Notes: generated by a model from the letters alone, not told the origin. DNA of 64,000 nucleotides from a virus (IMGVR_UViG_3300009788_000096:31403-95402); one strand, 5' to 3'; positions 2,512 to 26,541 are shown, counted from the stretch's first letter. Made by a program: numbers and translations.

Positions 2512-3786
2512 ATGCCATACCAAACAGGCGTAGTAACACAATTTTTAGGAGCAAACGGATTACTTCAGAAACTTTTAGATTTTATATCAGGAACGGAAGT
2601 AACTGGAGAAACTTTATCTAGCAGCGGAGTCTCATGGTCTGGGAGTTTAGCGAGCTCTCCTGTTGGACTTGGAAGGCTTGTTATTACCTATGAATTTTCT
2701 TCAGTTGAATATGAGGCTACAGATGATGGTTCCGGAAATATCACTGGAACAAATATTTCTGCCGGTACTATCAACTATACCAATGGAGCTTACAGCATTA
2801 CTTTTACTGGCACACCGGACGCAGCGCCAACTGCCGATTATATCCACGGAGTTCCCGGACAGGATTGGCGTGTAGAATTAAACCGAACCACCAGAGATGA
2901 TGGTGGTGATGGATATACGGAACCATGTCCGGGAGCAAAGGAAGTAGTGCTTTCAAATACAGGTCTATCAGGAGCGGAAGCAGTTATTGTTGGAATCAGG
3001 GAATGCTTCTATGTGACGGAAGACTTTTATAACTGGGACTTAAACGGTTATCTGAATTTTAACGCAGCGGGTGAATGGGATCAAAACGCAATCACTCATG
3101 GGATGCCTACGTATAGTTCTACATTCGAAAGTTTTTATCGCCATCCCGGGATGGCACTTCGTAATGATACAATGAACTATTGGTTCTATTCGAATCAGCA
3201 GCGTTTTATAGTTATAGTAAAGGTTGCATCTAACTATGAATCATGTTATCTCGGCTTTGGCAGGCGATTTGGTAATCCCGGCGATTATCCTTATCCATTG
3301 TTTATCGGTGGTTGTATTAGTGGAAACAGAATATCATCTGATACTACATTGTTTCATCAATTTTTTATTCAAATAAATCGTGCAGATAATAACTGCCAAG
3401 TTTGGACTGTGACTCCGGGAACGGATTATATGACTTGGATAGGACAATCAAGCGCAAACGCGGGTCAAAGAATACTGCCTTACGGTACATGGGGAGATCT
3501 GGGTGCGCTTAACCCAACAAAGAATGGCGAACGAATAATGACTCCCGTTTATATATGCCCATATAGTTCGTTACTCGGTTCGCTATATTATGATCTGGAT
3601 GAAGTATATCATATTGCGGGCATTGGCTTACAAAGTGAAGACTTGGTTAATTATGCTGGCAGTAGGTATCGGGTATTTCAAAATATATTCCGAACAACTT
3701 ATTTTGACTATATGGCAGTAAAGGAAGGTGCCGCAGTTTCAACAACGACAACCACGACAACCACGACAACTACGACTTCAACTTAA
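2512..3786 (+). CDS. Virion structural (minor tail) protein with C-terminal poly-Thr tag
   Basis: Directly after TMP; Gly/Thr/aromatic beta-rich; ends ...AAVSTTTTTTTTTTTTST*. Confidence 0.7.
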   Translation: MPYQTGVVTQFLGANGLLQKLLDFISGTEVTGETLSSSGVSWSGSLASSPVGLGRLVITYEFSSVEYEATDDGSGNITGTNISAGTINYTNGAYSITFTGTPDAAPTADYIHGVPGQDWRVELNRTTRDDGGDGYTEPCPGAKEVVLSNTGLSGAEAVIVGIRECFYVTEDFYNWDLNGYLNFNAAGEWDQNAITHGMPTYSSTFESFYRHPGMALRNDTMNYWFYSNQQRFIVIVKVASNYESCYLGFGRRFGNPGDYPYPLFIGGCISGNRISSDTTLFHQFFIQINRADNNCQVWTVTPGTDYMTWIGQSSANAGQRILPYGTWGDLGALNPTKNGERIMTPVYICPYSSLLGSLYYDLDEVYHIAGIGLQSEDLVNYAGSRYRVFQNIFRTTYFDYMAVKEGAAVSTTTTTTTTTTTTST

Positions 3787-3796
3787 GGAAAAGATT

Positions 3797-4765
3797 ATGA
3801 CTCTTTTAAATTATGCGTATTATGCAAATCCAACAAGTCATCACGATGTATTGACTAAGTTGAGGACTTTCGCTTTAGCACAAGGATGGACATCGGATTA
3901 TTATCATAGTGAAAGTGTCGAATGGGCCGCAACCGGTGGTTCTCCAGCTTATGACTTCATTGGTGGGGCCGAGTCTGCGTTGGGTCTTTGGTCTAATGGT
4001 CATGGTTTACAAGATTTAATTGTACGTTTTCGATGTACACAAAGTGGTGTGGATCCACAAAACGAAACGATGTATTGTGCTGGCATTCAGCCGGGAACGA
4101 GTCGAGTTCCCGATGGAGGTCAGTCTGCACAGCCGCATGCCCAAACAGGTTATTATACTCATTCAAGATATGCTACTCATTCAATGTCTCCCGGAACGAT
4201 GCATGGAGTTTGGTTCTTTGGCAATGCACACTTTATCTATATGGTTCTTGCTCCCGATTCTTCGTTTTGCACATTTCTTTTATTTGGAACCCCAAGCCTT
4301 TTTAAACCAACGGATAAGGGAGTTTATCTCGTTACGGGCGGCACTTACTTTGATTACTATGTCTATTGGTACGATGCATGGGGAGCTCAATCCAAGTACG
4401 CGCTTGCTCATGAAAGAACTGCAAACACAAGTTACTATAATAGTTGGGATGCGAATTATGATCGAAGGTTACCTACATGGCGTAATAGTACTTATGTTAA
4501 TGCCACAACTGTAATTTATAATACTTTATATTATGCCATTCAATTAAATTCATGGACTGGCAAACGAACCATGATTCAACCAATGGTTTATATGATGCGA
4601 TATCCTGATTCTGTTTACTATCCTCTTGGAACTTGGCCAGTTTTCTTAATCCCCTTTACTGGCCTTGGAATGGGAGACATATTGACTTATGGAGCAGAAC
4701 AATATATGGTTTTTCCAGATTCTTTTAATGTGAGACAAAACGGCATCGCATTTAGGATTGTATAA
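3797..4765 (+). CDS. Virion structural (minor tail) protein
   Basis: ATG at 3797 after AAGGA. The ORF-track extension from 3728 is only the +1 frame of the upstream Thr tract. Tail-module context. Confidence 0.65.
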   Translation: MTLLNYAYYANPTSHHDVLTKLRTFALAQGWTSDYYHSESVEWAATGGSPAYDFIGGAESALGLWSNGHGLQDLIVRFRCTQSGVDPQNETMYCAGIQPGTSRVPDGGQSAQPHAQTGYYTHSRYATHSMSPGTMHGVWFFGNAHFIYMVLAPDSSFCTFLLFGTPSLFKPTDKGVYLVTGGTYFDYYVYWYDAWGAQSKYALAHERTANTSYYNSWDANYDRRLPTWRNSTYVNATTVIYNTLYYAIQLNSWTGKRTMIQPMVYMMRYPDSVYYPLGTWPVFLIPFTGLGMGDILTYGAEQYMVFPDSFNVRQNGIAFRIV

Positions 4766-10056: not shown

Positions 10057-12327
10057 ATGGCAAAGCTTTCACCGACACAATTACAGAAGTTAAAATATGC
10101 CACGCAGGGCTGGAATGAAATAATGGAGCGAAATGCTCGACTGCTGGATGAAACACTTCTGAAAGTATCCGGAATGGTCGATGTCAATTTGACTTCATTG
10201 TCGAATGATGATATGCTTGTATGGGATGTACCGACCCAGAAGTTTATCAACGTTCCTTGGAGTACGATAATTGCACCTACTACTACCACAACCACTTCGA
10301 CATCAACGACGACTGCGACTTCAACGACGACTGCGACTTCAGCGTTGCTCCTGCTGATTTATTACAACATGGAATCATTGCTGAATACAACTACAACAAC
10401 GACAACCACTACAACGACTACTGTTACAACGACGAGTTTTACTTGTGCCATCGGATATTCTGGGAACTTGTGTGGGGTTCCTACAAATGCGTTCTGTTAT
10501 CAAAACTACGGCGGTTATACATGCAGTCAGGCATTTACGGATCATACTGATCCATGGGCAAGTGGTCCTGCTGATCAACAATATAGTGGTTACACTTTTG
10601 GGGTTCCTCAAATTGTTAATAAGATTGATATCCAAGCCCATACCTCTCCATACAATCGCCATCCGGTCGCTTTCCAATTCCGTGCTTCTAATGGTTCTGC
10701 ACCAACTAATCTATCAGAAGCAGAAGGTGGTACGCAGATATTGCAAGTAAAGATGGCAGGGACGTTTGACTATCCAACCCACCATAGTGTTGGTGATCTT
10801 GGCCATTGGTCTTCTGAAGAAGTCAAAACTTGGACATTTTCAAATATCACCGCATATAAACACTATTGGATATTGATGTGGGATAAGGATGAAGCTAATT
10901 TTAGTAGAGGTGCTGATTTTCATATTGGCGAAATGAATATGTATAGTTGTGGGGCAAGGCTAAGTACTACCACAACAACGACTTCTACAACAACGACAAC
11001 TATGACTGTTTGTACGACAACAACTGTTACGGTACCATTTTATAAGTGTGCTTTAGATCCAGTCGATCTGGGTGCTAATATTACTTTGCAGCATTATAAC
11101 ATGAGGGCAATCCATTCTGCTGCCAGTGCTTGGAATTCCGCTATAAGTAAATATTATACAAGAAAGAATGCTTTCGGACAGAATAAGTTTTACTTTGAAA
11201 TTGAATGTCGACCTTCTACTGATGATCAATGGATTCTCGGTCTTGCCAATGAAAGTTTCAATGTTGATGGATATCCTGGCGATAGTACAGCCGGTTGGGG
11301 TTATCGTGGAAATGGGAACAAGTATTACAATGGGAGTGCTGGAGGTTATGGAGATGCATTTGGCGATGGCGACGTTATCGGTGTAGCCTTTAACTTGCTT
11401 ACAAATAAAGTTTGGTTCTCCAAGAATGGCGCATGGCAAGCCGGTGGTGATCCTGCTGCGGGTACGGGTGAAGCATATAGTAATTTGACTGGATCACAAT
11501 TCTATGCGGCAATCGGACTTTATCAAGAAACTCATGGTCAATTAAGATTGTCTTCAGATGATTGGGACTCTGTGGCACCTTCAGGATTTGTTGAATTTGC
11601 TTGTGATGAGATTACAACAACGACTTCAACAACGACAACCTCAACGACAACCACAACAAGTTCAGTAAGCACAACAACTGTTACGGTGCCATTATATAAG
11701 TGTGCTTTTGACCCGGCTAATAAAGGTGCTTTTATTACTTTGGAATATTACAATAAACGGGCTCGGTCAACCGGTTCTAATTGGGACTCTGCGGCAAGTA
11801 AATATTATACAAGAAAGAGTGCATTCGGACAAAATAAATTTTACTTTGAATCATATCTACATTCTGGAAATAATATGATTCATGGTATTGGAAATGAAAA
11901 CCTTGTCACTACAAATTATCCGGGCAGTGATGCAAATGGTTGGGGTTATAATACTGCCAATGGTAGAAAGTATCACAGTGGCGCTTGGACACTTATTGGT
12001 AGTGCAATGAGTCAAGGCGAAACTGTTGGTATCGCAATTGACTTAACTGATTTGGATATAGGCCAAGGCAAGATTTGGTTTGCCGATCAAGGTTCATGGA
12101 TAGAAGGCGATCCTGCAGCTGGCACCGGAGCAAGTTATAGTAATTTGACTGGAGCGCAGATTTATGCGCTGATCGCTGCCTATAGTAATGGTGTAACGGC
12201 CGAACTTAGATTATCTTCTGACGATTGGGTCCAGTCCGCTCCGTCGGGATTTGTTGAATTTGCTTGTGTTGAGATTACCACCACAACGACAACAACGACA
12301 ACCACTACAACGACAACTACAACATAG
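10057..12327 (+). CDS. Tail fibre/adhesin: anchor + discoidin-like domain + two SPRY domains, joined by Thr tracts
   Basis: Two SPRY-like repeats (KFYFE...YPG.D..GWGY...G[DE].[IV]G.A...K.WF); five Thr-rich tracts including 16 terminal Thr. Confidence 0.75.
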   Translation: MAKLSPTQLQKLKYATQGWNEIMERNARLLDETLLKVSGMVDVNLTSLSNDDMLVWDVPTQKFINVPWSTIIAPTTTTTTSTSTTTATSTTTATSALLLLIYYNMESLLNTTTTTTTTTTTTVTTTSFTCAIGYSGNLCGVPTNAFCYQNYGGYTCSQAFTDHTDPWASGPADQQYSGYTFGVPQIVNKIDIQAHTSPYNRHPVAFQFRASNGSAPTNLSEAEGGTQILQVKMAGTFDYPTHHSVGDLGHWSSEEVKTWTFSNITAYKHYWILMWDKDEANFSRGADFHIGEMNMYSCGARLSTTTTTTSTTTTTMTVCTTTTVTVPFYKCALDPVDLGANITLQHYNMRAIHSAASAWNSAISKYYTRKNAFGQNKFYFEIECRPSTDDQWILGLANESFNVDGYPGDSTAGWGYRGNGNKYYNGSAGGYGDAFGDGDVIGVAFNLLTNKVWFSKNGAWQAGGDPAAGTGEAYSNLTGSQFYAAIGLYQETHGQLRLSSDDWDSVAPSGFVEFACDEITTTTSTTTTSTTTTTSSVSTTTVTVPLYKCAFDPANKGAFITLEYYNKRARSTGSNWDSAASKYYTRKSAFGQNKFYFESYLHSGNNMIHGIGNENLVTTNYPGSDANGWGYNTANGRKYHSGAWTLIGSAMSQGETVGIAIDLTDLDIGQGKIWFADQGSWIEGDPAAGTGASYSNLTGAQIYALIAAYSNGVTAELRLSSDDWVQSAPSGFVEFACVEITTTTTTTTTTTTTTTT

Positions 12328-12335: not shown

Positions 12336-13610
12336 ATGAAAAAGTTTCCTGACATTCAAGCGAATTATCCGGGTCGAGCATTTGGCGTCGTTCAAACGAC
12401 TACCAGACCTCTGCTCGGTACTTATAGCTTTGACTTCGACGGCACGGACTTTATAAGAACTGTAGTCCATCCCGGAACCGATATCAATATTGCGATTTCA
12501 TTATGGATTCGTTTTGATACGGTTCCAACGGATGCAGTCAATAGACCTGTTGCTATAATGAGTAATAGTGATGGAACTAATTCTGGTCTTGGATTAGTCA
12601 AAGTCACCGGAGCCGCAAGAGTTCATATGGTTCGTTCTGCAAATGGAGCTGCCGGAGCTTATGAAGTAGACGATCAAGCAACTCCCGGTTCTGGCTTTGC
12701 GGTTTCTCCTAATACTTGGTATCACATGGTTGTGCAGAAGACAACTACGAATTTTGAACTTTGGGTCAATGCTGTTAAGGTTCTTGATCGAGCCGGCTCC
12801 TTTGGCAATGCCGATGCGACCGGATTTGATGGATTACTTCTTGGCTCTAAAACAGATAATTCAAATGGAATCGACGGGAAGATTGATCAAGTCAAAGTAT
12901 TTGATCTTGGTACCAGCGGCGGTTTAGCTCAAAGTCAAATTCGTGAGTTATATTTTGAAGGTGCAACAACGACAACTACTTCAACGACAACCACGACAAC
13001 CACGACAACTACTTCAACAACGATTGATCTTTGTCCTGGTGGATATTCCTCTGAATTATGTACTGATGGGGTAAACAGGGCATTTTGTCGTCAGACCTAT
13101 GGTGGTTATCAATGTTCCTGGGCTTTTGATGGTAACTATAATAACCCGTGGGTGGGTGGTACATTAGATCAGCAATACGTTGGTTACAGTTTCGTCGTTC
13201 CACAAATTGTCAATAAATTTTCTATTCTTGCATATAATGGTTCGACATTTCCGAGGACGCCGGATGCTTTCCAACTCCGTGCTTCTAATACTGCTGCCCC
13301 AACTAATTTAACAGAAGCTGAGGGCGGTACATTAATCCATCAAGTAAAGATGCCGGGAACGTTTGACTACCCAACCCATCATACTGTTGGTAACCTCGGG
13401 CATTGGAGTCAAGGCGAACTTAAATCTTGGGAATTCGATAATGGCATTGCATATAAACATTATTGGATGCTGTTCTGGGACAAAGATGAAAACGACTTTG
13501 GTCGGAGTGGGGATTATAATTTTGGTGACCTCAGTATGTATAGCTGCGGCCCACGTTTAACAACGACAACCACGACAACCACGACTTCAACGACAACTAC
13601 TTCATCATAA
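12336..13610 (+). CDS. LamG/ConA-like lectin + discoidin-like domain virion protein with Thr tracts
   Basis: FDFDGTD, ISLWIR, NTWYHMVV, LWVNAV and DGKIDQVKVF LamG motifs. Second domain is paralogous to that in 10057..12327. Confidence 0.75.
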   Translation: MKKFPDIQANYPGRAFGVVQTTTRPLLGTYSFDFDGTDFIRTVVHPGTDINIAISLWIRFDTVPTDAVNRPVAIMSNSDGTNSGLGLVKVTGAARVHMVRSANGAAGAYEVDDQATPGSGFAVSPNTWYHMVVQKTTTNFELWVNAVKVLDRAGSFGNADATGFDGLLLGSKTDNSNGIDGKIDQVKVFDLGTSGGLAQSQIRELYFEGATTTTTSTTTTTTTTTTSTTIDLCPGGYSSELCTDGVNRAFCRQTYGGYQCSWAFDGNYNNPWVGGTLDQQYVGYSFVVPQIVNKFSILAYNGSTFPRTPDAFQLRASNTAAPTNLTEAEGGTLIHQVKMPGTFDYPTHHTVGNLGHWSQGELKSWEFDNGIAYKHYWMLFWDKDENDFGRSGDYNFGDLSMYSCGPRLTTTTTTTTTSTTTTSS

Positions 13611-13618: not shown

Positions 13619-13828
13619 ATGACTATACTATCACCCAGCGGTTTGGAAACGGACGATTATAGCCAAGCAAATTGGTGGGCAATCTATAACAGAAATGTGG
13701 AACTGTTGAATGCTGTTTTGATAAAGTTGCAGGGATTGGGAGACGTAAAGGTAGACAAGTTAAAAGATGACAGTTTTCTTTTCTGGGATGATGCTAATTC
13801 GAAATGGAAAGTGGGGATTTATCCATAA
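13619..13828 (+). CDS. Small virion protein, paralog of the fibre N-terminal anchor
   Basis: LSPSGL...W..IYNRN.ELL...L.KLQGLGDV...L.DD.FL.WD....KW aligns with the N-terminus of 10057..12327. Confidence 0.65.
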   Translation: MTILSPSGLETDDYSQANWWAIYNRNVELLNAVLIKLQGLGDVKVDKLKDDSFLFWDDANSKWKVGIYP

Positions 13829-14109
13829 TGGCAACCTATTATACATTGACTAACACTGGTTTGCGTTATTCTGATATTGGTTATTCTGCATGGAATGTCA
13901 ATGTCAATAACTATAACTGGAGCGCGCTCAATAATACTCTCTTGAAGTATTCGGCTTTGTTAGACGTTGATCCCACTGGCTTAGTTCAAGGCGACGTTTT
14001 AATATATAACTCATCTTCTGAAAAATGGGAAAGGAAAGCTTTAAACCCTGGCTATCACGTGATCAGTACAACGACAACTACGACTTCTACTACTACGACT
14101 TCGACATAA
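13828..14109 (+). CDS. Small virion protein: fibre-anchor paralog plus C-terminal poly-Thr tag
   Basis: TAATG coupling at 13828; LNNTLLKYSALLDVD...GDVLIYN....KW; ends STTTTTTSTTTTST*. Confidence 0.65.
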   Translation: MATYYTLTNTGLRYSDIGYSAWNVNVNNYNWSALNNTLLKYSALLDVDPTGLVQGDVLIYNSSSEKWERKALNPGYHVISTTTTTTSTTTTST

Positions 14110-16616: not shown

Positions 16617-19367
16617 ATGACAATCCAAGAATTAGATATGGAAAATGGCGATTATGATTTGACTTCATTAATTACCGTGTTAACTCATATTCCCGATGCC
16701 GATAATGCTATGGAATGTCGAGCTCTCGTATTTTTTGGTGATGGCACTAAGAATCTTGATGGCACAGGTGGAAACTTCAATGTTGTCATAACTATTGGGA
16801 GTCAAACATTACAGCCCAGTCCGAAGGTTTATACCTTTGGAACGGAAGTACGATCTGCTCTCCGCACTGATCCATTTACTGTCCCCGCAAACGAACAAGT
16901 TATAGTCAAAGTTCTATCTCCAAATGGTGCTGATACAGATGTTGATGTCACAGCATATCTTCATAGTGACAATGTTGCAAACGACGTTTGGGATGAATTA
17001 CTTACAGGCGGAACTCATAATATTGCGACAAGCGCAGGACGCCGGCTCCGGACTTTACAAGATTTCGGTCTTTATGAAGGCGGAGCGGTATGGGTTGATA
17101 CGGTGAATGGTGTCGCCGGAACAGTCAATTTTGAAAACGGGGTAGTAAACAATCCTGTGGATAGCATTGCAGATGCGAAGACAATAGCAGACAGCATCGG
17201 GCTCAAAACAATCCATTTCCTTGCGGGATCGTCTGTAACTCTTGCAGAAGCATTTGACAGCTTTGTTTTTGAAGGAATGGCATATACGGTTGATTTAAAC
17301 GGACAGTCTGTTAATGGGACATGGTTTCAAAGAGCGACTATTGTTGGAAATGACGATGGTTCAAATACGATTCCGACACGTTATCTTCGTTGCATAATGG
17401 GAAACAATACTCTCGGGTTATCATACCTTGGAGATTGTGCGTTTGAAGGGGATTTGGTGTTGGCGCAAGAGGGCACCTATATTACAGATCGTTGTTTGTC
17501 AGCAGTTGCCGGAACAGAAACTCCGTCCATTGATTTTCAAAACGAGAACGAAAATAAATATTTGAACATGCGCCATTATTCTGGAGGGATTGAAATTAAA
17601 AACTTTGGTCATGGGACAGCAGATCACCATATGTCACTTGAGGGTGATGGTCAGCTTGTCTTTAATTCGAATTGTTCAAATGCCAATGCCGGTGATGAAC
17701 TCGCTATTCGTGGAAATTTTACTATCACTGATAATGTAGGTGGTGGATGGGCTGGCACATTATCTGATGATGCCAGATTTGACTCTGTGGAATTAGTGGA
17801 TAACGTTTGGGATGAATTACTTACGGGTGGAGCGCATAATATTCCGACTTCTGCGGGAAGAAGATTGCGCGAAATTGCAGGCACTGTTATTGCTTCTGAT
17901 ATTGCGCAAGGTCCGGGCACTGGAAACAATCAAATTCAATTGGCTGCCGCCGCTTCCGCAGTTGACGGCGCTTATGATCCAGCGATGGTTGTAATAATGT
18001 TAGGGACAGGAGCAGGACAAAGCCGATTAATTTATGAGTATGACGGCGCAACCAAAATTGCAACTGTAGATCGAAATTGGAAAGTAAATCCAAGTACCGA
18101 TAGTGAATATGTTCTCTTCGGCCATCCAGGAAGAGAACACGTTAACGAAGGACTTGCTCAAGCCGGATCAACGAGCAGCACGATTAAGTTAAATTCACTG
18201 GCAAGTGATCAAGATAATATTTACAATGGGCAGATGGTTTTTATCCGGTCAGGTACTGGAGAAGATCAGGTTGGGCTTGTGAAGTCATACGTTGGAGGTA
18301 CTAAAGTTGCAACGATGTGGGATAACTGGGGCGTAACACCTGACGGTACAAGCGGTTACGTAATGATGCCGATGGATATGCGACCAGAAACCATAGCAAG
18401 AGGAGTTTGGGATAGATTAGTTGCGAGTCATTTAACTTCTGGAAGCGCAGGTTTGGCTCTGATGCATACCACTTATGGTAGTGTAGTTCATATTGATACG
18501 GTTGGCGGCAGTGCAGGTACAACGTATCCAAAAGGCACAGTTGAAGATCCAGTGGATAATTATGCCGATGCAAAGATAATAGCGACAACGTATGGTTTAG
18601 AAGAGTTTCACTTGCTCAGCAATTTGACTCTTGGAGCTTCTGATAATGCAGATAATTTTAAATTTTCCGCTCCGACTGGTATTAATATTATATTAACAGT
18701 AACTTCAGGTTGCAGTACAATCAATACAACTTTTGAACGATTGGTTCTAACAGGCACATTAGATGGTGGTGTTTGGATAGAACGATGTAGTATTGCGGGA
18801 CTGAATGACATTCAAGGATTTGTACTTGAATGTATATTTTTGGCAAATAGTTCTCTTACTGGTCCTTCTTCTACAGTAATGTATAATTGTGGCACCGCAG
18901 TAGTAGCCCCACCGATTACATTGGGTTTAAACAGTTCACCACTAACTATGGCAGGTTGGAAAGGCGGACTAAAAATAGGAAGCAAAATTGGTTCTCAAAA
19001 TATTATAATAGATTTATTGTCCGGCACTTTGGAAATTGCTTCAACTTGCACTGCTGGAAAAATAATTGTCAAAGGCATTGGGCATATAACAGCAGATAAC
19101 TCAGGTGCTAACTGCATTATAGACACCACCGATTTAATAAAGGCAAGTCATATTGACTTCATGAAAAATATAGAAGGCGGACGTTGGAGAATTAATCATA
19201 TAACTCATCAAATGTTATTCTACAAAGAAGATAATGTTACGGAAGTTGCGCGGTTTAATTTATTTGATCATGCTGGAATCCCAGCGTCTGAAAACGTATA
19301 CGAAAGAGTTCGAGTGACAACCACAACAACTACAACAACCACTACTACTACCACAACATCAAGTTAG
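16617..19367 (+). CDS. Large repeat-containing putative virion protein with C-terminal poly-Thr tag
   Basis: Repeats VWDELLTGG.HNI.TSAGRRLR x2 (plus a degenerate third) and duplicated GTG.GQ/DQ and V.[IV]DTV.G.AGT modules; ends in T14-SS*. Confidence 0.65.
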   Translation: MTIQELDMENGDYDLTSLITVLTHIPDADNAMECRALVFFGDGTKNLDGTGGNFNVVITIGSQTLQPSPKVYTFGTEVRSALRTDPFTVPANEQVIVKVLSPNGADTDVDVTAYLHSDNVANDVWDELLTGGTHNIATSAGRRLRTLQDFGLYEGGAVWVDTVNGVAGTVNFENGVVNNPVDSIADAKTIADSIGLKTIHFLAGSSVTLAEAFDSFVFEGMAYTVDLNGQSVNGTWFQRATIVGNDDGSNTIPTRYLRCIMGNNTLGLSYLGDCAFEGDLVLAQEGTYITDRCLSAVAGTETPSIDFQNENENKYLNMRHYSGGIEIKNFGHGTADHHMSLEGDGQLVFNSNCSNANAGDELAIRGNFTITDNVGGGWAGTLSDDARFDSVELVDNVWDELLTGGAHNIPTSAGRRLREIAGTVIASDIAQGPGTGNNQIQLAAAASAVDGAYDPAMVVIMLGTGAGQSRLIYEYDGATKIATVDRNWKVNPSTDSEYVLFGHPGREHVNEGLAQAGSTSSTIKLNSLASDQDNIYNGQMVFIRSGTGEDQVGLVKSYVGGTKVATMWDNWGVTPDGTSGYVMMPMDMRPETIARGVWDRLVASHLTSGSAGLALMHTTYGSVVHIDTVGGSAGTTYPKGTVEDPVDNYADAKIIATTYGLEEFHLLSNLTLGASDNADNFKFSAPTGINIILTVTSGCSTINTTFERLVLTGTLDGGVWIERCSIAGLNDIQGFVLECIFLANSSLTGPSSTVMYNCGTAVVAPPITLGLNSSPLTMAGWKGGLKIGSKIGSQNIIIDLLSGTLEIASTCTAGKIIVKGIGHITADNSGANCIIDTTDLIKASHIDFMKNIEGGRWRINHITHQMLFYKEDNVTEVARFNLFDHAGIPASENVYERVRVTTTTTTTTTTTTTTSS

Positions 19368-19372
19368 GAGAT

Positions 19373-20002
19373 ATGATGGCAGTTAAAAGACAAAGTTTAA
19401 AAGGAATTGGAAAGAAGAAGAAAGCTCGCAAAGCGGCAGCTGCACAAGGGCAAATGACGCGATGGTTGAAGCCGACTGGGAATTGGAGCATGGCATGGGA
19501 TGTATCAATTACTACAGGCACAGATATTACTCCCAGCGAAAGATTAAAGGAAAAATACACTTGGTGGGATGATAAGTATAGCATCGTTGCGCAGGAAGTC
19601 GCTGCTCCTCCGGGATTCGGGATTTCCTTTAAGTTTAAACCTGTTCCCAAAACACATGACTTTTATGTTGACTTCGTTGGTCATTATACTGGTACGCATT
19701 CCGGCCCACATTTCCCGCGTGTTGAAATTTGGGATTATAATACGACTGCATGGGTTGATACAGGTATAGAACTGGATCTCACCATGAGCGAAGATCAAAG
19801 TCTTACTTCTAACCTTATAGATAAAACCGGAGATTGGTGGGAAGCAGTAACCGATAATGTCTGGTTACAACTTGCGCATCCTAATGTTGCTGGTAATGCA
19901 GCTCATGAGATTCATGTAACCAAAATGGGCTTGAGGCAAAAAATAGTAATAACAACCACAACCACTACAACGACTACGACAACCACAACGACATCGAGTT
20001 AA
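19373..20002 (+). CDS. Hypothetical (putative virion) protein with C-terminal poly-Thr tag
   Basis: SD AGGAG; beta-rich; ends in a long Thr run then SS*. Confidence 0.6.
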   Translation: MMAVKRQSLKGIGKKKKARKAAAAQGQMTRWLKPTGNWSMAWDVSITTGTDITPSERLKEKYTWWDDKYSIVAQEVAAPPGFGISFKFKPVPKTHDFYVDFVGHYTGTHSGPHFPRVEIWDYNTTAWVDTGIELDLTMSEDQSLTSNLIDKTGDWWEAVTDNVWLQLAHPNVAGNAAHEIHVTKMGLRQKIVITTTTTTTTTTTTTTSS

Positions 20003-20011
20003 GGAGCCATT

Positions 20012-20686: not shown

Positions 20687-20832
20687 GTAAAGTTTTAATT
20701 ATTACAAAAGGTTTCGGAAAGGAACAGACCCTTGTTGTAAAAGGGTTCGGCGAGATGGGCATTATTTATGCCCGCAAGGCGATCCACATTTTCAGAAAAA
20801 TCATACGGAAGGGGATAAGACATGGCAATTGA
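20683..20832 (+). CDS. Small hypothetical protein, 49 aa (not in ORF track)
   Basis: ATGA overlap with upstream stop; SD AAGGAG; MSKVLIITKGFGKEQTLVVKGFG... with internal KGFG repeat. Confidence 0.5.
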   Translation: MSKVLIITKGFGKEQTLVVKGFGEMGIIYARKAIHIFRKIIRKGIRHGN

Positions 20833-21160
20833 AAGTTTTAGAAAGCAGTCATGGGAAGAGTGGGTTATTGCCGGCTCTATCGAAGATGTTGTAGATGCGG
20901 GAGAAACGATTGATTTGGCAAATAGCACCATCAAAGCATGGCAATGGGATGATCTTGTAACGGAGGTTACAACAACTGTAGTTGAAATCCTTACAAAAGC
21001 GAAAGATGATGTTAAGCATTATCTTAAAGTCCGAGTCAAAGGAGGCAGCGCTATCGCAGGCACAGCTAATCCGGGTGTTTATAAGATTACGTTTTATATT
21101 ATTACGAGTCTTTTAAACAAATATGAAATTGACGTTAAAATGAAAATATGGGAAACTTAA
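20822..21160 (+). CDS. Putative virion adaptor protein
   Basis: FRKQ...GETI...VRVKGG...YKITF.I.TS...YE pattern seen in small phage Ig-like adaptor proteins. Confidence 0.5.
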   Translation: MAIESFRKQSWEEWVIAGSIEDVVDAGETIDLANSTIKAWQWDDLVTEVTTTVVEILTKAKDDVKHYLKVRVKGGSAIAGTANPGVYKITFYIITSLLNKYEIDVKMKIWET

Positions 21161-21161
21161 A

Positions 21162-21296
21162 ATGGCAACTACTACCACTACAACAACAACGACCACTTCT
21201 ACGACGACGACAACAATAATTCCGTCTGGCGATCCTAAATTGATTTTTATACATGATGAAGTCAAAAAAGTTTTCAAATATCAAAAGAAAGAATAA
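21162..21296 (+). CDS. 44-aa peptide with N-terminal poly-Thr (not in ORF track)
   Basis: MA-T10-S-T5-IIPSGDPKLIFIHDEVKKVFKYQKKE*; ATG follows the upstream stop after 1 nt; mixed ACN codons. Confidence 0.6.
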   Translation: MATTTTTTTTTTSTTTTTIIPSGDPKLIFIHDEVKKVFKYQKKE

Positions 21297-21322
21297 GTTT
21301 TTAAATTTAAAACGAAACAGTT

Positions 21323-21339
21323 ATAAAATGAGTTATAAT
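21323..21339 (+). promoter_or_regulatory. Phage promoter motif ATAAAAYG-N3-TATAAT upstream of the glycosyltransferase cluster
   Basis: ATAAAATGAGTTATAAT; same motif at 41258-41274 and 57666-57682 on the - strand. Confidence 0.6.
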
Positions 21340-21429
21340 ATATTATAGAAATGTCTTCAATAATGAAGACAAACCGCCACTCATAACCGTGACCCCATAG
21401 GGGAATCACAAATGAAAAGGAGAAGTCAA

Positions 21430-22755
21430 ATGTTTAAACCTCAGAACGTAGCCATCCTCACCAACTTCCAAGATTTCAATCCCGGCTATTCCCTGTCAGG
21501 AATCGTAGCGGACCAATGTATAATGCTTGATCGCTACGGCCACAAAGTTCATCTTTATACTTGTGATAGTTATAATGATGAATTCGATGATGTTGACCTG
21601 CCATGTGAAGTACACCGAAAAATTCCGTTTTGTCACCTTACCGATTACAAAGAGGAAAAGGATTTTTCCAAGGAACACGAGATGTATGGCAAAACGTTGA
21701 AGAATGTTTTGGTGGAAGAATTCAAGACGAAGAAAATCGAGATTGCTTTTACTCATGATTGGATTTTCACCGGATGGAATCTTCCGTTTTCTTATGGTAT
21801 CCGCCTTGCCAACCCACATCTGGGTGGAGTCAATTGGATGCATTGGGTTCATAGCGTTCCTTCTGATCTTGAATATCCGCAAGGTAGGGATTGGTGGGAT
21901 ATTAGGAGATATGGCCCGAATCATAAAATTATTTTCCCCAATGCCATCGAAAGAACCCGGGTGGCCGAACAGTTTAAAGGACAAATTGATGATGTCCGTA
22001 TAATCCCGCATATCAAGGATCTGCGAACATGGTATGACTTTGATGAGGAAACATGGGAATTCATAGATGACTTCCCCGGCGTAATGCAAGCGGACATTGT
22101 GCAAATCTATCCGGCTTCCACTGATCGTCTTCGTGCGAAACAGATCGACATGGTTGCAAATCTTTTTGCTCGCTTTAAAGAAAAAGGTTTTACTGTTTGT
22201 CTTGTCGTTGCAAACCAATGGGCAACCGAAAAAGAGCAGGAAAAAGATATCCAAAACTTTTTGGATCTTGCACCTAAACTGGGATTGAAGCCAAATGAAG
22301 AATTGATCTTTACTTCGGCATGGAAAGATGGCAAGTATAATACCGGTCTACCGAAGAAGATATTGAGGGAGCTGCAATTATGTTCCAATATTTTCGTCTT
22401 CCCAACGGTAGAGGAATCATTTGGTCTGGTTGGACCGGAGGCTGCGCTTGGTGGTAACTTCATGGTTCTAAACAAAAGTCTTTATATGATGTTCGAGATA
22501 TTTGGGAACTCTGGACTTTACTGTGATTTCGGTTCCTACCATAACATCTTCGATCCTAAAAATATTGGAATTACTATGGATCAATATCTGGCAGGGGTTT
22601 GTAATCTGATTCTGGGGAGGTTTTCACAGAATGAAGTATTTCAAACCCGGACTTGGTGTCGAAGAGTTTATAATATGGATAACCTATATAATCAAGTCTA
22701 CCAACCGTTGATGGCAGAGTCCCGTCTGTGGGGCTTCCCCACCAAAGCATTATAA
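21430..22755 (+). CDS. Glycosyltransferase, GT-B fold (GT4-like)
   Basis: SD AAGGAG; NIFVFPTVEESFGLVGPEAA is the GT4 EX7E motif. Confidence 0.85.
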   Translation: MFKPQNVAILTNFQDFNPGYSLSGIVADQCIMLDRYGHKVHLYTCDSYNDEFDDVDLPCEVHRKIPFCHLTDYKEEKDFSKEHEMYGKTLKNVLVEEFKTKKIEIAFTHDWIFTGWNLPFSYGIRLANPHLGGVNWMHWVHSVPSDLEYPQGRDWWDIRRYGPNHKIIFPNAIERTRVAEQFKGQIDDVRIIPHIKDLRTWYDFDEETWEFIDDFPGVMQADIVQIYPASTDRLRAKQIDMVANLFARFKEKGFTVCLVVANQWATEKEQEKDIQNFLDLAPKLGLKPNEELIFTSAWKDGKYNTGLPKKILRELQLCSNIFVFPTVEESFGLVGPEAALGGNFMVLNKSLYMMFEIFGNSGLYCDFGSYHNIFDPKNIGITMDQYLAGVCNLILGRFSQNEVFQTRTWCRRVYNMDNLYNQVYQPLMAESRLWGFPTKAL

Positions 22756-22765
22756 GGAGGCAAAG

Positions 22766-23986
22766 ATGGAGATAACCATTAAGTCATTTAACGGCATTGG
22801 TGATTTACTTTTTGTAACTCCAACGCTGAAAGTAATTAAGGAGGCCTATCCTGATTGTCATATAACAGTCAATACTAATTATCCGGACTTGTTGGAGGAC
22901 AATCCAAACGTTGACGTGATTGGATCTGAGAACGTAGGAACGTTTCTGGGGTACGATGATCCAATTCACCAGAAATGGCCGACAGCGCATCATATATTAA
23001 AGGACTGGCATATAATCTGTGAAGAATATGGCCTGCATACTGATAAGCCAGCGCTGCAACCAGAACTTTATCTTAATTTTATGACGGCACTGGATGTGCT
23101 TGAAAAACATCGATCCCCAATAGGAGTGCAAATTATACACAAGGGGCATTGGCATGCAAAAAAGATTTGGCCTAAATTTGATTATCTTTCGCGGCTCCCT
23201 AAGTTTGTGCCAATTCCAAAGGTGCCTTCGATTAAGGATTTGATTTACTTCATTGCTTGTTGCAAGGCGGTAGTATGCGCTGAAGGTGGAATCTCACATA
23301 TCGCAAAGGCAGTAGGAACACCAGCGATAGTCATTTACGGAGGCTTTGCCAAACCGGAATGGAATGGTTATGAAGATCAAATAAATGTTTGCAATGAAAA
23401 ATGGTGTTCCTATTGTTACAACCCGAAACCATGCGAAAATGAAATTGAAAGAATTTGCATGAAAGAAATTTCAATCGAACACGTTTGCCGGCTGGCTGAA
23501 GGTTTGGAAAAGATTCCAGAGCTTGAACAACACAATGCAATGAAGTTTATAAAAGAAGATGCTTTATGTTGGTCAAGAACCTGCTCTTCCCATAGACCCG
23601 ACATGTTAGATATCGGTGCTGGCAATAATCCCTTGCGTGGCGCGAGAGGGATAGATACAGGTAAAGATGAAGATGCTTATAACATCTACACAGCGGATCG
23701 TTCGCAAGATTTTATCTTCTCTTCCCATTGCATCGAGCATTTGGATTATCCTTCTAAAGCTTTGAGAGAATGGAGCAGAGTGCTTCGTACCGGCGGTCTG
23801 CTTTATCTTTATTTCCCGTCGCCGGATTATATACCTTGGAGACAGAAGTCAATGCCGAAATGGCATAAGCATGATTTTCGCATTGAAAGTATTTTGGCAA
23901 TGCTCCCCGACGATTTATACCCAATTGAAATCGCCCATACAGATTGGTTCTTCGGTCAAAAAATTATAGCGAGAAAGGAAAAGTAA
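22766..23986 (+). CDS. GT9 (heptosyltransferase-like) glycosyltransferase fused to a class I SAM methyltransferase
   Basis: GIGDLLFVTP, EGGISHIAKAVGTPAIVIYGG and CSYC..CMKEIS (GT9); LDIGAG, DFIFSSHCIEH and RVLRTGG (MTase). Confidence 0.85.
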   Translation: MEITIKSFNGIGDLLFVTPTLKVIKEAYPDCHITVNTNYPDLLEDNPNVDVIGSENVGTFLGYDDPIHQKWPTAHHILKDWHIICEEYGLHTDKPALQPELYLNFMTALDVLEKHRSPIGVQIIHKGHWHAKKIWPKFDYLSRLPKFVPIPKVPSIKDLIYFIACCKAVVCAEGGISHIAKAVGTPAIVIYGGFAKPEWNGYEDQINVCNEKWCSYCYNPKPCENEIERICMKEISIEHVCRLAEGLEKIPELEQHNAMKFIKEDALCWSRTCSSHRPDMLDIGAGNNPLRGARGIDTGKDEDAYNIYTADRSQDFIFSSHCIEHLDYPSKALREWSRVLRTGGLLYLYFPSPDYIPWRQKSMPKWHKHDFRIESILAMLPDDLYPIEIAHTDWFFGQKIIARKEK

Positions 23987-23987
23987 A

Positions 23988-24770
23988 ATGGCTAAAAAAA
24001 TGATCAAGAAGCAAAAACTTAAATGCACGGCGGAGGGTTACAAAGAAGCATTGAACCGGGTGAGGGCTGCGGAAGATCCTGTTGATGCGCTTTGCAAATT
24101 TTATAATGAAACAGTCGGGATGAAAAAAGGCCGGACGGTTTTCGATACGCAATTTGTTCCGTTCATCGAGAAGTATGGATGTGACAGGGAAATAAGTTTG
24201 GAGATTGGCTATGGCCCCGGTTCTCTTGTGGCCGAAGCAGGGAAGCATTTCCGTGAGACATGGGGGATAGATGCTCATGAGGCACGGAATCTGGTTGGCC
24301 ATTTGTTGGAAGCAAATGAATGCTATAACTATAAACTCCTTATCAGTCCTGATGGAAGAAGTATTCCCACGAAGAAAAATAACATTGACTTCATTTATTC
24401 ATGGACTGTTTTTATGCACTTCGGGAAAATCGGTATCGCCAGTGATTATCTTCGTGATGCCTATGCGGTTTTGAAACCGGGAGGTCTGGCGCTCATTTAC
24501 TTCTCCAGAATGTATCGAAGTCGAAAGCATGAAACAAAAGAGGAATGGCTGGCTGCAATTGAGCACGAAGAGGAAATGGAACGGTATCGAGAGATTAGTG
24601 GCAGTACAATCCAAAAGATTAATCTTCAAATCTCCATGCAGCAAATGGTTGATATGTGCGAATGTGTCGGTTTTGAAGTCTTGGAACGAACGGCATCGAC
24701 CAGAAGAATCGACGGAATACTTTGCCACCACGGTCAACATGGGGTAGTACTTCGAAAAGAAAAGGAGTAA
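23988..24770 (+). CDS. Class I SAM-dependent methyltransferase
   Basis: LEIGYGPG, WGID, DFIYSWTVFMH, VLKPGG. Confidence 0.85.
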   Translation: MAKKMIKKQKLKCTAEGYKEALNRVRAAEDPVDALCKFYNETVGMKKGRTVFDTQFVPFIEKYGCDREISLEIGYGPGSLVAEAGKHFRETWGIDAHEARNLVGHLLEANECYNYKLLISPDGRSIPTKKNNIDFIYSWTVFMHFGKIGIASDYLRDAYAVLKPGGLALIYFSRMYRSRKHETKEEWLAAIEHEEEMERYREISGSTIQKINLQISMQQMVDMCECVGFEVLERTASTRRIDGILCHHGQHGVVLRKEKE

Positions 24771-24773
24771 AAC

Positions 24774-25496
24774 ATGAGAGAAAAAGAAGTTGCAGTTGTG
24801 GCAATGCCAAGGACAGGCTCCACATATCTTTTTAGATGCTTGGCTGGTCTCAAGCATGCAGGTGGAAGTCCGAAAGGCGCCAACCTTGCAAAGCTTCCAA
24901 TAATGAAGTGCCACAGTTTAGCTCCACCCGAAACTTTCGGTGATCCGTGGTCAAGCCAAATAAGTGAGCATTGTCTTAAAGGAAGAAAAGTCATTTGGCT
25001 TTTCGGTGATCCAATAGCTTCTGTCGTTTCCACAATGAAGAAAAGGTTTGACCATGTTCATGCGAAGAATTGTGGCTGCTTTAAACCGCTGGGGATGGTG
25101 GATCTGATAGATAGAGATGACTTTAACTATGAGTGGATGTTTGACTCATGGACATCTATCCGACATGACTTTCCCGTTTTATGTGTAAGGTATGAAACCT
25201 TATGGAAAAACCGTTTTGTGATCGAATGGTTTCTGGGAAGAAAAGTCAAATGGAATGAGTGGAGTCCTCGGTCTAACAGGTGGACCACAGAAGAACTTCC
25301 AAACTTTCTTTCGAAAGCCTTAAATAAAACCTATTCAAGTTTGGTTGAAAAAGTTCAAATGCATCCGGATGTAACTTTAAATGGTGGAGATACATTGAGA
25401 ATATCCGGGGATTTGGTAAGGATAGAAAAAGGCGTTGGATTTGGCAAAAACTATTTTTATGACTTAGTAAAAAAAGGAGAAACGGAAAATGGCTGA
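24774..25496 (+). CDS. Sulfotransferase-like protein
   Basis: AMPRTGSTYL (5'-PSB), KCH, GDPIASVVS, VRYETL. Confidence 0.75.
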   Translation: MREKEVAVVAMPRTGSTYLFRCLAGLKHAGGSPKGANLAKLPIMKCHSLAPPETFGDPWSSQISEHCLKGRKVIWLFGDPIASVVSTMKKRFDHVHAKNCGCFKPLGMVDLIDRDDFNYEWMFDSWTSIRHDFPVLCVRYETLWKNRFVIEWFLGRKVKWNEWSPRSNRWTTEELPNFLSKALNKTYSSLVEKVQMHPDVTLNGGDTLRISGDLVRIEKGVGFGKNYFYDLVKKGETENG

Positions 25497-26541
25497 GCTG
25501 TCAATTATTGTACCGTATGTGAACGAGTATCCACAAATCCTTTTTACACTTCAAAGTATTGCGCAAGACCTACGAGGTCGCGTTGACTTTGAAGTCATTG
25601 CTGTAAACAACTATTGCGATGAAGTCATTGCTCAAGATCGCGATAGCACAAGACGAATCATTCGAAGATTAAAAGCATTTTACAATATCGAGGCTTCAGA
25701 TGAAGAAATTGTTGAAACATTGGTCGGTGAAGAAATTGGACTCATTGGGCCAGAAGATAAAGGTGGCAAGGCAGTAGAAGCATGTGCTAAAGGGAACGAC
25801 TGGCTTACGGCGATTTCATACACGGACAAGTTAAGTCATTGGAATGCGAAGCGTTTCGGCATTGAAAATAGCAGTGGTGATTATTTTCAATTCATTGATT
25901 CCCATTGCATCGTCGGCCGGAATTTGCTGTATGATATGTTTGACTTTTATAAAGATAACGCTTGGAGCATGGATGGCACGCTCCATCCGCCCTTGACATA
26001 TCTCATTTTGGAATGGCGAAGATTAATATATGGATTAAGATTTGTCCATACCGAAAAACAAGCGCAACTTGACTATAAGTTTTCGAGTTACCAACATCCC
26101 GAGAGTGGCTTGCCATACGAGGTTCCGTGTATGTCGACTTGTGGTATGCTAATGACTCGGGAGCTATACGAAGAAACTGGTGGCTGGCCTAAAGAACTGG
26201 GAATTTATAGTGGAGGCGAGCACTTCATGAATTTCACCCTTGCTGTTCTTGGAAAGAAGAAGTATATCTTTCCAACTAAATTTGCGTTGTATCATCATGC
26301 CGAAAAAAGAGGATATGCTTTTAACTCCGGTGATACTCTTCGCAATCGCTTAATAGCAGCATATCTATACGGTGGCCTTGATTGGTTTTATGAAAATATA
26401 AAGAAGTGTAAAGGTCGGCCAAATGTGATTAAGAAGTTTCAAGCGGAGATTCCATTATTGTGCAAAGATCAGCGGCAATGGATTAAAGATCGACAAGAGA
26501 TGACTATATTCGAATGGCTGGAAAAGTGGGGAAAGATATGA
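25489..26541 (+). CDS. GT-A glycosyltransferase (GT2 superfamily) with polypeptide GalNAc-transferase (GT27)-like motifs
   Basis: SIIVPYVNE...TLQSI, FIDSHC (DxH), PCM...GGWPKELGIYSGGEHFMNF...YHHAEKRGYAF. Confidence 0.8.
   Translation: MAELSIIVPYVNEYPQILFTLQSIAQDLRGRVDFEVIAVNNYCDEVIAQDRDSTRRIIRRLKAFYNIEASDEEIVETLVGEEIGLIGPEDKGGKAVEACAKGNDWLTAISYTDKLSHWNAKRFGIENSSGDYFQFIDSHCIVGRNLLYDMFDFYKDNAWSMDGTLHPPLTYLILEWRRLIYGLRFVHTEKQAQLDYKFSSYQHPESGLPYEVPCMSTCGMLMTRELYEETGGWPKELGIYSGGEHFMNFTLAVLGKKKYIFPTKFALYHHAEKRGYAFNSGDTLRNRLIAAYLYGGLDWFYENIKKCKGRPNVIKKFQAEIPLLCKDQRQWIKDRQEMTIFEWLEKWGKI

Follow-up and report, generated by a model that had tools for sequence, protein, structure and literature searches.

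The phage described here probably forms a particle with a sugar coat, since at least eight of its particle proteins end in poly-threonine (poly-Thr) and it encodes a soluble GT27-like enzyme shaped like the initiators of animal mucins. The genome, 95,402 bp in length (~95 kb), is that of an uncultured subsurface phage which probably infects an anaerobic Gram-negative bacterium. The window is the whole stretch of 64,000 nucleotides analysed (IMGVR_UViG_3300009788_000096:31403-95402). C-terminal poly-Thr tails were found on at least eight particle proteins (six in the window and two upstream of it), and nine or more proteins carry a Thr tag. This study establishes by computation where the tags lie, which folds and motifs the enzymes have, and that tags and enzyme co-occur. 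The initial annotation had read poly-Thr as a glycosylation tag served by an adjoining sugar cassette; this reading is supported, and all parts of it that can be tested in silico held, with the amendments given below.

Threonine tracts and tagged proteins

All 12 Thr tracts previously noted in seven late open reading frames (ORFs) were recovered in place: six C-terminal, one N-terminal and five internal, four of the latter within the SPRY protein and one within the laminin G-like protein (Table 1). Each of the six C-terminal tracts is followed immediately by TAA or TAG, then by a Shine-Dalgarno-like GGAG or AAGG and then by ATG, which shows that these are true stops, some TAA and some TAG, and rules out that the tracts are linkers within read-through fusions. 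When all 95,402 bp of the genome were scanned in six frames, runs of Thr and Ser were confined to the + strand of the late region, and two extra C-terminal tags were found upstream of the window, on the 51-aa ORF and the major tail protein. The major capsid protein, adjacent to this 51-aa ORF, is without a tag.

The tracts mix all four ACN codons. Adjacent identical Thr codons account for 29 of 154 (19%), compared with 27% expected from the codon frequencies of the tracts (one-sided binomial p 0.013 for the deficit). Codon mixing is thus above chance, as the earlier claim of selection on the peptide would have it, and the tags are judged genuine and selected at the peptide level.

Table 1. Features of the tagged genes and the sugar cassette (positions in the window).
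Feature	Position	Strand	Evidence and remarks
51-aa ORF directly after major capsid gene	upstream of window	+	C-terminal Thr tag
Major tail (tail tube) protein	upstream of window	+	ends in T11S
424-aa structural protein, first gene after tape measure	2512..3786	+	phrog_687, E 3e-32; C-terminal tag 3739-3783, STTTTTTTTTTTTST
756-aa fibre-like protein, two SPRY modules	10057..12327	+	Pfam SPRY, E 3.7e-22, two stretches; internal poly-Thr linkers 10279-10314, 10387-10422, 10963-11001, 11614-11664; C-terminal T16 12277-12324
424-aa protein, ConA-like/LamG domain	12336..13610	+	Pfam Laminin_G_3, E 1.6e-11; internal poly-Thr linker 12966-13022; C-terminal tag 13560-13607
101-aa protein	13804..14109	+	C-terminal tag 14065-14106; homologs in relatives G004, G005
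916-aa protein of unknown fold, after lysis genes	16617..19367	+	C-terminal T14SS, 19317-19364
209-aa protein, unknown function	19373..20002	+	C-terminal T14SS, 19952-19999
Sulfotransferase-like protein 1, 224 aa	20012..20686	+	no Pfam match; nearest ESM-Atlas clusters are sulfotransferase families
44-aa ORF, MA + 16-residue Thr tract, directly 5' of GT4-like gene	21162..21296	+	N-terminal tract 21168-21215
GT4-like GT-B glycosyltransferase, 447 aa, soluble	21412..22755	+	Pfam Glyco_transf_4 E 0.0017, under cut-off
GT9-type glycosyltransferase + SAM methyltransferase fusion, 406 aa	22766..23986	+	Glyco_transf_9 E 2.9e-11; Methyltransf_11 E 6.5e-10
SAM-dependent methyltransferase, 260 aa	23988..24770	+	Pfam Methyltransf_23/11/25, E 5e-8 to 3e-7
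Sulfotransferase-like protein 2, 240 aa	24774..25496	+	Pfam Sulfotransfer_1 E 2.8e-4, under cut-off
Soluble GT-A glycosyltransferase, 350 aa, like GT27 catalytic domain	25489..26541	+	GT2-type, PF00535 E 2e-8
142-aa protein, unknown function, overlaps GT-A gene end	26514..26942	+	homologs beside GT-A gene in ~25 of 70 loci

The tagged set is proposed to consist of outward-facing particle proteins, i.e., the post-capsid ORF, the tail tube, the post-tape-measure protein (whose homologs in relatives are likewise Thr-tailed), the fibres with SPRY and lectin folds and three further late proteins. In the 916-aa protein neither a transmembrane segment nor a signal peptide was found. ORFs made nearly only of Thr and Ser precede the GT4-like gene in the unrelated loci L200, L204 and L235, as the 44-aa ORF does here. 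The description of the tagged proteins as mostly unrelated needs amendment for 10057-12327 and 12336-13610, which have a duplicated domain-plus-tract module in common (13260-13559 is 72% identical to 10663-10962); the module is also duplicated inside 10057-12327. Similarly, core tail-tip proteins had been described as untagged, which is true of the hub here but not of the hub of relative G004, where a tag of 33 residues is present. The tag thus relocates between proteins among relatives.

The sugar cassette and its GT27-like enzyme

Directly 3' of the tagged genes, the late strand carries the cassette, whose genes are tightly coupled. The enzyme annotations given previously (sulfotransferases, GT4, GT9-methyltransferase, methyltransferase and GT-A) hold, some of them weakly. 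Both sulfotransferase assignments are sub-threshold in Pfam and are based on language-model and predicted-structure look-alikes. Against the sulfotransferase clusters of the ESM Atlas, protein 1 scored 0.95-0.96 for features and TM 0.6-0.7 for structure, and protein 2 scored 0.95-0.97 and TM 0.65; the former has an N-terminal P-loop-like GGHGTTY and a homolog in the cassette of locus L002, and the latter an N-terminal PRTGSTY motif. The GT4-like protein has 567 homologs, many of them with PF00534/PF13439, where the family assignment is clear. Its AF2 model (pLDDT 94) is nearest in fold to the retaining GT4 enzymes BshA and MshA, and most GT-A loci have its gene as well. The GT9 fusion protein matched the GT9 sequences 3tov and 1psw in the PDB, and the 142-aa protein had no match in Pfam or PHROG. 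No membrane segment was found in the cassette proteins, all of which are soluble, and the cassette contains no flippase, polymerase or oligosaccharyltransferase.

The GT-A enzyme had been called ppGalNAc-T-like, and its likeness proved to be GT27-specific by sequence profile, motifs and two structure aligners. In the profile search against PDB sequences the best match was GalNAc-T10 (E 2e-5), and six of the eight matches were ppGalNAc-Ts. With the AF2 model (pLDDT 94.8), the best 50 Foldseek matches were all ppGalNAc-Ts (E 2e-15, TM 0.67-0.69), and VIA-align gave Z scores of 26.6 (rmsd 3.0, 284 aligned) and 25.1 for GT27, compared with 19.3 for the next family. D137 and H139 of the DxH motif are invariant in 45 homologs, and DAHC is aligned to DSHC of T10 and DAHC of TgGalNAc-T3; in mouse GalNAc-T1 this metal-binding motif is Asp209 and His211 (PMC4202792). 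G242, G243 and E244 of the Gal/GalNAc-T motif are also invariant, aligned to WGGE of T10 and TgT3. For the distal His, a metal ligand which is His344 in mouse GalNAc-T1 (PMC4202792), H269 is invariant and H270 nearly so, and they are aligned to GH of VGHVFR in TgGalNAc-T3, in a domain alignment of just 10.7 bits; the offset is consistent with the ranges of the structural alignment. The resemblance covers the fold and the metal site, not the acceptor. No ricin-type lectin domain was indicated, as no ricin Pfam match was obtained and residues 280-350 are helical, nor was a type II membrane anchor, as the maximum 19-residue hydropathy is 0.82 and the protein starts at the first strand of the fold. 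Other GT-A enzymes with a similar core use lipids and polysaccharides as acceptors.

Most likely it is the GT-A enzyme that initiates the glycan. The GT4-like enzyme is a further candidate, since its association with the tags is no narrower than that of the GT-A enzyme.

Co-occurrence of tags and enzyme

The initial annotation had proposed a test of whether terminal poly-Thr ORFs co-occur with homologs of 25489..26541, and the outcome was strongly positive across unrelated phage lineages. Tracts of (ACN)8 were present in 25 of 49 viral records with the GT-A enzyme but in none of the 50 related records that lack it (p 3e-10). About half of the GT-A records are thus without a strict Thr tract, and the majority of those are fragments; among the near-complete ones, 9 of 12 were positive by the strict pattern and two more by a relaxed pattern, while G041 was no better than its own control. 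Thr tracts also lay within 10 kb in 40 of 70 GT-A loci, compared with 3 of 54 distant hub-relative loci, where they were short and doubtful (Fisher p 4e-10). A capsid search with a positive control found the capsid type of this phage in none of the 49 GT-A records, which indicates that the pairing of tag and enzyme recurs across unrelated lineages.

Close relatives bear Ser-rich or acidic-Thr tails in place of poly-Thr, beside differently composed sugar cassettes, and tract length among relatives ranges from 10 to >80 residues. For example, the provirus G017 encodes GT4, GT9 and GT-A enzymes, and its (EEETTTT)n tails are found on the post-capsid ORF, the likely tail tube ORF, the post-tape-measure ORF and a 79-aa ORF (matched by gene order and size); the last, which corresponds by position to 13804..14109, ends in EEETTTT. 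The tag-bearing relative G009 is without this GT-A but has a GT-rich cassette of ten genes at the same site, including another small GT-A with a Gal-T-type motif. A divergent copy of the GT4-like enzyme (26% identity) occurs in G009 and in G006, also tag-bearing, and this GT-A was not found in either. Thr-tagged relatives without any sugar cassette were looked for among these phages and none was found. Because every close relative has a hydroxy-amino-acid tail of some kind along with some cassette, the contrast within the family is weaker than that between lineages.

Alternative explanations

The Thr tags could be glycosylated with the first sugar coming from the GT4-like enzyme or the GT9 domain, and with the GT27-like enzyme acting in extension only. 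Such initiation has precedents in GtfA of the serine-rich-repeat adhesins and in the autotransporter heptosyltransferases, and the distribution of the GT4-like gene fits as well: most loci have it along with the GT-A gene, in several it is immediately downstream of small Thr/Ser-only ORFs, and G009 and G006 have the divergent copy. Its model, however, is nearest to generic GT4 enzymes for small molecules or lipids (Z 15-16.5), with GtfA (4pqg) only at rank 22 (Z 12.9), and the Gal-T-type GT-A of G009 could fill the GT-A role there. To our knowledge, GT27 is the sole family in the cassette with known action on Thr-rich peptides and a preference for Thr. Initiation by the GT4-like or the GT9 activity is therefore considered unlikely, and the GT27-like enzyme is preferred as the initiator.

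It is less probable still that the tracts carry no modification and serve as flexible spacers or entropic bristles, and that the cassette is directed at host envelope polysaccharide, lipopolysaccharide or phage DNA. Phage glycosyltransferases are indeed known best from DNA glucosylation and serotype conversion (PMC12619734), and Thr-rich linkers are common in secreted proteins, but tails abutting a stop codon have nothing to link, and the membrane protein, flippase and polymerase required for envelope glycans are missing from a cassette that sits within the late structural operon. Nor would spacers explain why tag and enzyme are found jointly in phages whose capsids are unrelated and why enzyme-less relatives show none (0 of 50). 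That the tracts are a by-product at the DNA level without peptide function, produced by slippage-prone ACN repeats or at recombination junctions of module shuffling, seems very improbable. An identical 24-nt stretch in three tags, the duplicated domain-plus-tract modules and the variable tract length would fit such an origin. On the other hand, the codon mixing speaks against slippage, the tracts are invariably Thr/Ser in the gene's own frame and strand, and relatives place Ser-rich or acidic-Thr tails on the same protein ends, so it is the chemistry that is conserved and not the DNA. Glycosylation of the tags is accordingly the reading retained here.

Comparison with known systems

The sole published precedent found for a virion sugar coating established by experiment is that of the mycobacteriophages Che8, Corndog and Myrna (Freeman et al. 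2023, Cell Host Microbe 31:1216, via PMC12619734 and PMC13313380). There, phage-encoded glycosyltransferases with methyltransferases nearby work in the cytoplasm, as is proposed here, and the surface subunits, the tail tube protein among them, bear O-glycans at their C-termini; the tail tube protein is also tagged in the present phage. Those O-glycans have been shown by experiment, and those of the present phage are predicted from sequence. The present system further differs in the homopolymeric Thr tail on at least nine proteins, in the untagged capsid subunit beside a tagged ORF, in the sulfotransferase-like genes and in the probable host, which is not an actinobacterium. No tblastn match to the GT-A or GT4-like enzyme was obtained in 50,697 cultured-phage records, mycobacteriophages included.

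Eukaryotic mucin-type O-glycosylation was compared through the GT27 ppGalNAc-Ts (mouse GalNAc-T1 8v9q, human T2, T10 and T12, and Toxoplasma T3). These and the phage enzyme have in common the fold of the catalytic domain (Z 25-27, 281-284 aligned residues), DxH, GGE and the distal His, and both systems have dense Thr-rich acceptors and, as predicted here, a first sugar followed by extension and sulfation enzymes. However, the phage enzyme is encoded by a bacterial virus, has 13-17% sequence identity and is without the lectin domain, the membrane anchor and the secretory-pathway location; its likeness to GT27 is one of fold and motifs.

The serine-rich-repeat adhesins of Gram-positive bacteria (GtfA/GtfB and extending glycosyltransferases) are similar in the cytoplasmic O-glycosylation of low-complexity hydroxy-amino-acid tracts by a cassette with GT4, but differ in the Ser-rich acceptor and the accessory Sec export. 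Neither a GtfB partner nor accessory Sec genes were found in the cluster by Pfam families and a membrane-segment scan. Chloroviruses and other giant viruses likewise encode soluble glycosyltransferases and methyltransferases, with which they decorate structural proteins independently of the secretory pathway of the host. They are eukaryotic viruses, and chlorovirus-type capsid glycans are mostly atypical N-linked ones on the major capsid protein; we know of no homopolymeric tag or GT27-like enzyme in these systems.

Proposed mechanism and implications

Based on the results of this study, cytoplasmic O-glycosylation of virion proteins by phage-encoded enzymes, with portable Thr tails and linkers as acceptor tags, is considered likely. 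We infer sugar attachment, the order in which the enzymes act, the kinds of sugar and the gain for the phage as follows. The soluble GT27-like GT-A enzyme would most likely add the first sugar to the Thr hydroxyls, by analogy HexNAc donated by a UDP-sugar, with DxH and the distal His coordinating Mn2+. The chain would then be extended by the GT4-like enzyme and the GT9 domain, O-methylated by the two methyltransferase domains and perhaps sulfated from PAPS by the two sulfotransferase-like proteins. Since membrane segments, flippase, polymerase and oligosaccharyltransferase are all missing, the glycan would grow directly on the protein, either ahead of particle assembly or while it is under way. 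Such a coat may serve in shielding, adhesion or stiffening.

More tentatively, tailed phages could possess a modular tag-and-writer system, in which tail chemistry (poly-Thr, Ser-rich or acidic-Thr) co-varies with swappable glycan cassettes; this is possible rather than probable. If true, related phages would wear different sugar coats, akin to the variation of O-antigen loci, and the phage studied here would have a methylated and sulfated mucin-like brush on its head, tail tube and fibres. Prokaryotic viruses would then commonly carry soluble, lectin-less GT27-type writers of poly-Thr, and this would have a bearing on the origin of the mucin-initiating enzymes of eukaryotes.

Poly-Thr tags in the late genes

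The initial annotation had described poly-Thr tags on late virion proteins together with a set of glycosylation enzymes in this phage, and this observation was confirmed. All 12 Thr tracts reported in the window were found at their positions, and scanning the complete genome in all six frames showed such tracts only in frame and on the late strand. Two further C-terminally tagged genes lie upstream of the window (see table). One is a short ORF that immediately follows the major capsid gene; its counterparts in relatives carry Thr tracts of up to ~80 residues. The other encodes the major tail protein, for which phrog_807 ("major tail protein with Ig-like domain") was the matching family, with the best-matching stretch near the N-terminus. 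In total, the genome holds eight tags at C-termini, one tract at an N-terminus and five linkers inside proteins. Transmembrane segments and signal peptides are absent from all tagged proteins and from all proteins of the cassette.

The origin of the tracts could possibly be replication slippage, selection on the peptide or copying of DNA. As claimed previously, the codons are mixed: all four ACN codons occur, and identical neighbours (29/154 vs. 27% expected) are rarer than chance (p 0.013), which fits selection at the peptide level and speaks against slippage. On the other hand, an identical 24-nt stretch is common to three tags (at 3739, 12966 and 13560), and the two fibre-like genes contain duplicated modules of a domain plus a Thr tract, both within and between genes, with 72-86% DNA identity; DNA copying has therefore also contributed to the spread of the tags. 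The terminal tracts might alternatively be linkers of giant fusions made by read-through or recoding of the stop codons. This was excluded because each of the six C-terminal tracts in the window is followed immediately by TAA or TAG, the two stops being mixed, and then by a ribosome-binding site and ATG.

Features of the window phage and its relatives (window positions unless a locus or the genome is named)
Feature	Position	Strand	Remarks
ORF after major capsid gene	L001:16065-16217 (genome 28064-28216)		51 aa, C-terminal tag; upstream of window
Major tail protein	L001:18084-18644 (genome 30083-30643)		186 aa, ends T11S; upstream of window
Tape measure	18-2507	+
Tail-tip module, after tape measure			GTA/Rhodobacter type: phrog_1082, phrog_778, NlpC/P60, hub with Phage-tail_3 and Rcc01698_C
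Duplicated modules, first pair	10663-10962 vs. 13260-13559
Duplicated modules, second pair	11017-11660 vs. 11671-12322
Lysis block	14118-16063		between fibre-like genes and two large ORFs
44-aa ORF	21162-21296		upstream of GT4-like gene
GT4-like gene	21412-22755	+	447 aa
GT-A gene	25489-26541	+	350 aa
142-aa ORF	26514-26942		overlaps end of GT-A gene
Poly-Asp tracts, up to 28 residues	38414-38725	-	in early-strand ORF 38261-39580
Poly-Asp tracts, up to 36 residues	57044-57244	-	in early-strand ORF 56681-57610
Tagged hub of relative G004	L099:7970-10537		33-residue Thr/Ser tail at end
Thr/Ser small ORFs in unrelated phages	L200:2672-3013; L204:2587-2772; L235:1885-2229		near-pure Thr/Ser, directly upstream of GT4-like gene
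Cassette of relative G009			same site: 756-aa GT, acyltransferase, two GT2 enzymes, GT4-like enzyme, epimerase, sulfotransferase
Ser/Glu-rich tails and cassette of relative G001	L108/L109, e.g., L108:6184-8541 and L109:2112-2693	- (L108)	cassette at same site: 785-aa GT, radical-SAM/SPASM enzyme, two hexapeptide acyltransferases, weak GT2

Genome setting and host

The window is the final 64 kb of one 95,402-bp viral contig, which is contained in a single sequencing run, a subsurface metagenome from which this DNA may derive; no RNA run was listed as containing it. The end of the late operon occupies the + strand from 1 to ~27,000, beyond which the sign of the GC skew changes. After the tail-tip module the late order is fibre-like genes, lysis block, two large ORFs and enzyme cluster, and a scan for promoters and terminators in 13500-28000 yielded nothing informative on operon structure. 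The lysis block stands between two groups of tagged genes. In it, two holin-like genes precede those of two small proteins whose N-termini are signal- or lipoprotein-like; the latter are possibly spanins and as such would fit a Gram-negative host. Very long poly-Asp tracts were observed in two ORFs of the early strand.

Seven GT-A homologs were located on labelled MAG contigs, of which 4/7 were assigned to Desulfobacteraceae/Deltaproteobacteria, 1/7 to Proteobacteria and 2/7 to archaea, and one GT4 homolog was on a contig labelled Chloroflexi. Since labelled contigs may be mis-binned phage, these labels give only a hint, namely of an anaerobic host.

Enzymes of the cassette

Among the cassette enzymes, the strongest result was the resemblance of the GT-A enzyme to ppGalNAc-Ts. 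Pfam backed its annotation as a GT2-type GT-A enzyme, and the proposed likeness to ppGalNAc-Ts held when a profile of 45 homologs was compared with all PDB sequences: GalNAc-T10 was the best match and 6/8 matches were ppGalNAc-Ts. In the profile alignment DAHC fell on DSHC/DAHC, GGE on WGGE and an invariant HH on the GH of VGHVFR. The AF2 model (pLDDT 94.8) had only ppGalNAc-Ts among its top 50 Foldseek matches, and with an independent aligner run against 48,161 representative chains, mouse GalNAc-T1 (Z 26.6) and Toxoplasma GalNAc-T3 (Z 25.1) stood ahead of the next family (19.3). As the enzyme has neither a lectin domain nor a membrane anchor, it is a soluble catalytic-domain homolog rather than a canonical GT27 member. 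The last part of the GT-A gene overlaps with the gene of a 142-aa protein that has no family match and is conserved beside GT-A in ~25/70 loci; because it is kept there, this protein may be a partner or specificity factor.

Pfam also supported both the GT9-methyltransferase fusion and the separate methyltransferase. The GT4 assignment was below the Pfam cut-off in the window protein itself but clear in its 567 homologs and in the AF2 model (pLDDT 94); the closest relative has 83% GT4 identity. The nearest folds of that model were retaining GT4 enzymes of a generic kind, with nothing specific to peptide acceptors, and the profile of this protein had no match among PDB sequences. For the two sulfotransferases claimed, Pfam was sub-threshold or blank and no meaningful match was present among PDB sequences, but the nearest ESM Atlas clusters, by features and predicted structure, were sulfotransferase families, a lead that both may be sulfotransferases. 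No flippase, polymerase or oligosaccharyltransferase was found in the enzyme cluster.

In several unrelated phages the GT4-like gene is immediately preceded by a small ORF consisting almost purely of Thr and Ser, the position held by the 44-aa ORF in the window; such ORFs may be free mini-mucins or enzyme primers.

Co-occurrence of tags and enzymes

The postulated link between terminal Thr tracts and the GT-A enzyme was borne out across viral records. GT-A homologs were present in 70 viral loci, most of which also had a GT4-like gene, with GT9, methyltransferase and sulfotransferase genes variably present. Thr tracts or tails lay within 10 kb in 40/70 of these loci and in 3/54 loci of distant hub homologs (Fisher p 4e-10), where the three positives were short and doubtful tracts. 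A search of viral contigs with the hub as single query had returned no relatives, whereas an alignment of four hubs did find them. Counted per whole record, (ACN)8 occurred in 25/49 GT-A records, always on one strand, as against 0/50 records of relatives by hub or capsid that lack the enzymes (p 3e-10). Nine of the 12 GT-A records that were at least 90% complete had (ACN)8, and two of the three near-complete negatives showed Thr/Ser-mixed tracts under a relaxed pattern; in the third, G041, that pattern did not exceed its control. The capsid type of the window phage was found in 0/49 GT-A records, with a working positive control, and the pairing of tag and enzyme thus recurs in unrelated lineages. 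These include contigs of 142-277 kb, in which giant poly-Thr proteins adjoin the cassette.

Tags and cassettes in close relatives

All full-length tail tube homologs recovered among 80 capsid relatives end in a tail of hydroxy amino acids, either poly-Thr or Ser-rich. Thr tails occurred together with GT4 and GT-A genes in three relatives (G003, G004 and G005). The claim that the hub lacks the tag was correct for the window phage but not for G004, so the set of tagged proteins varies among relatives. The provirus G017 (57% GC; L190/L191) has GT4, GT9 and GT-A genes and a variant tag, (EEETTTT)n, in which TTTT blocks are split by acidic residues; it stands at the ends of several structural-module ORFs, i.e., a small post-capsid ORF, the tail tube, a post-tape-measure protein and a 79-aa protein, as matched by gene order and size.

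In these close relatives the cassette is hypervariable in content at a fixed genomic site. G009 has Thr tails without the GT-A enzyme of the window phage, and its small GT2 aligned to the GT-A profile with an hhalign probability of 24%. In G001, the closest capsid relative (88% identity), the corresponding proteins carry Ser/Glu-rich tails instead of poly-Thr and the cassette is again different, an observation from one lineage which may mean that the tag is matched to the enzymes. No Ser-rich tails were found within 10 kb at the four other relatives of the 785-aa GT, so a link of Ser tags to that GT is only tentative. Tails in relatives lacking a sugar cassette, the case named previously as contrary to the proposal, were looked for among close relatives and not found. 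These cases suggest that the chemistry of the tail may go with the make-up of the cassette.

Meaning of the tag-enzyme pairing

Within the reach of sequence analysis and structure prediction, the results support candidate O-glycosylation of the Thr tags on the virion by the cassette. To our knowledge, mycobacteriophages are the only phages in which experiments support the glycosylation of virions by phage enzymes; for these, Freeman and co-workers reportedly published a precedent in 2023. Full-text literature searches returned no paper that deals with phage enzymes of the GT27-like kind or with poly-Thr tags in phages, and tblastn searches of cultured-phage records with the GT-A and GT4-like proteins gave no match.

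If the proposal is true, sugar-coated particles would be widespread among environmental phages whose hosts are quite different, a simple peptide tag that can be transferred would specify the coat, and the enzyme that writes it would be small, soluble and related to those that initiate mucins. The tag and enzyme would then form a directly testable pair for glyco-engineering in bacteria, and the GT-A enzyme would add to what is known of where GT27-like enzymes occur outside eukaryotes. The system would also offer a handle on the protease resistance of phage particles or their sticking to surfaces in sediments.
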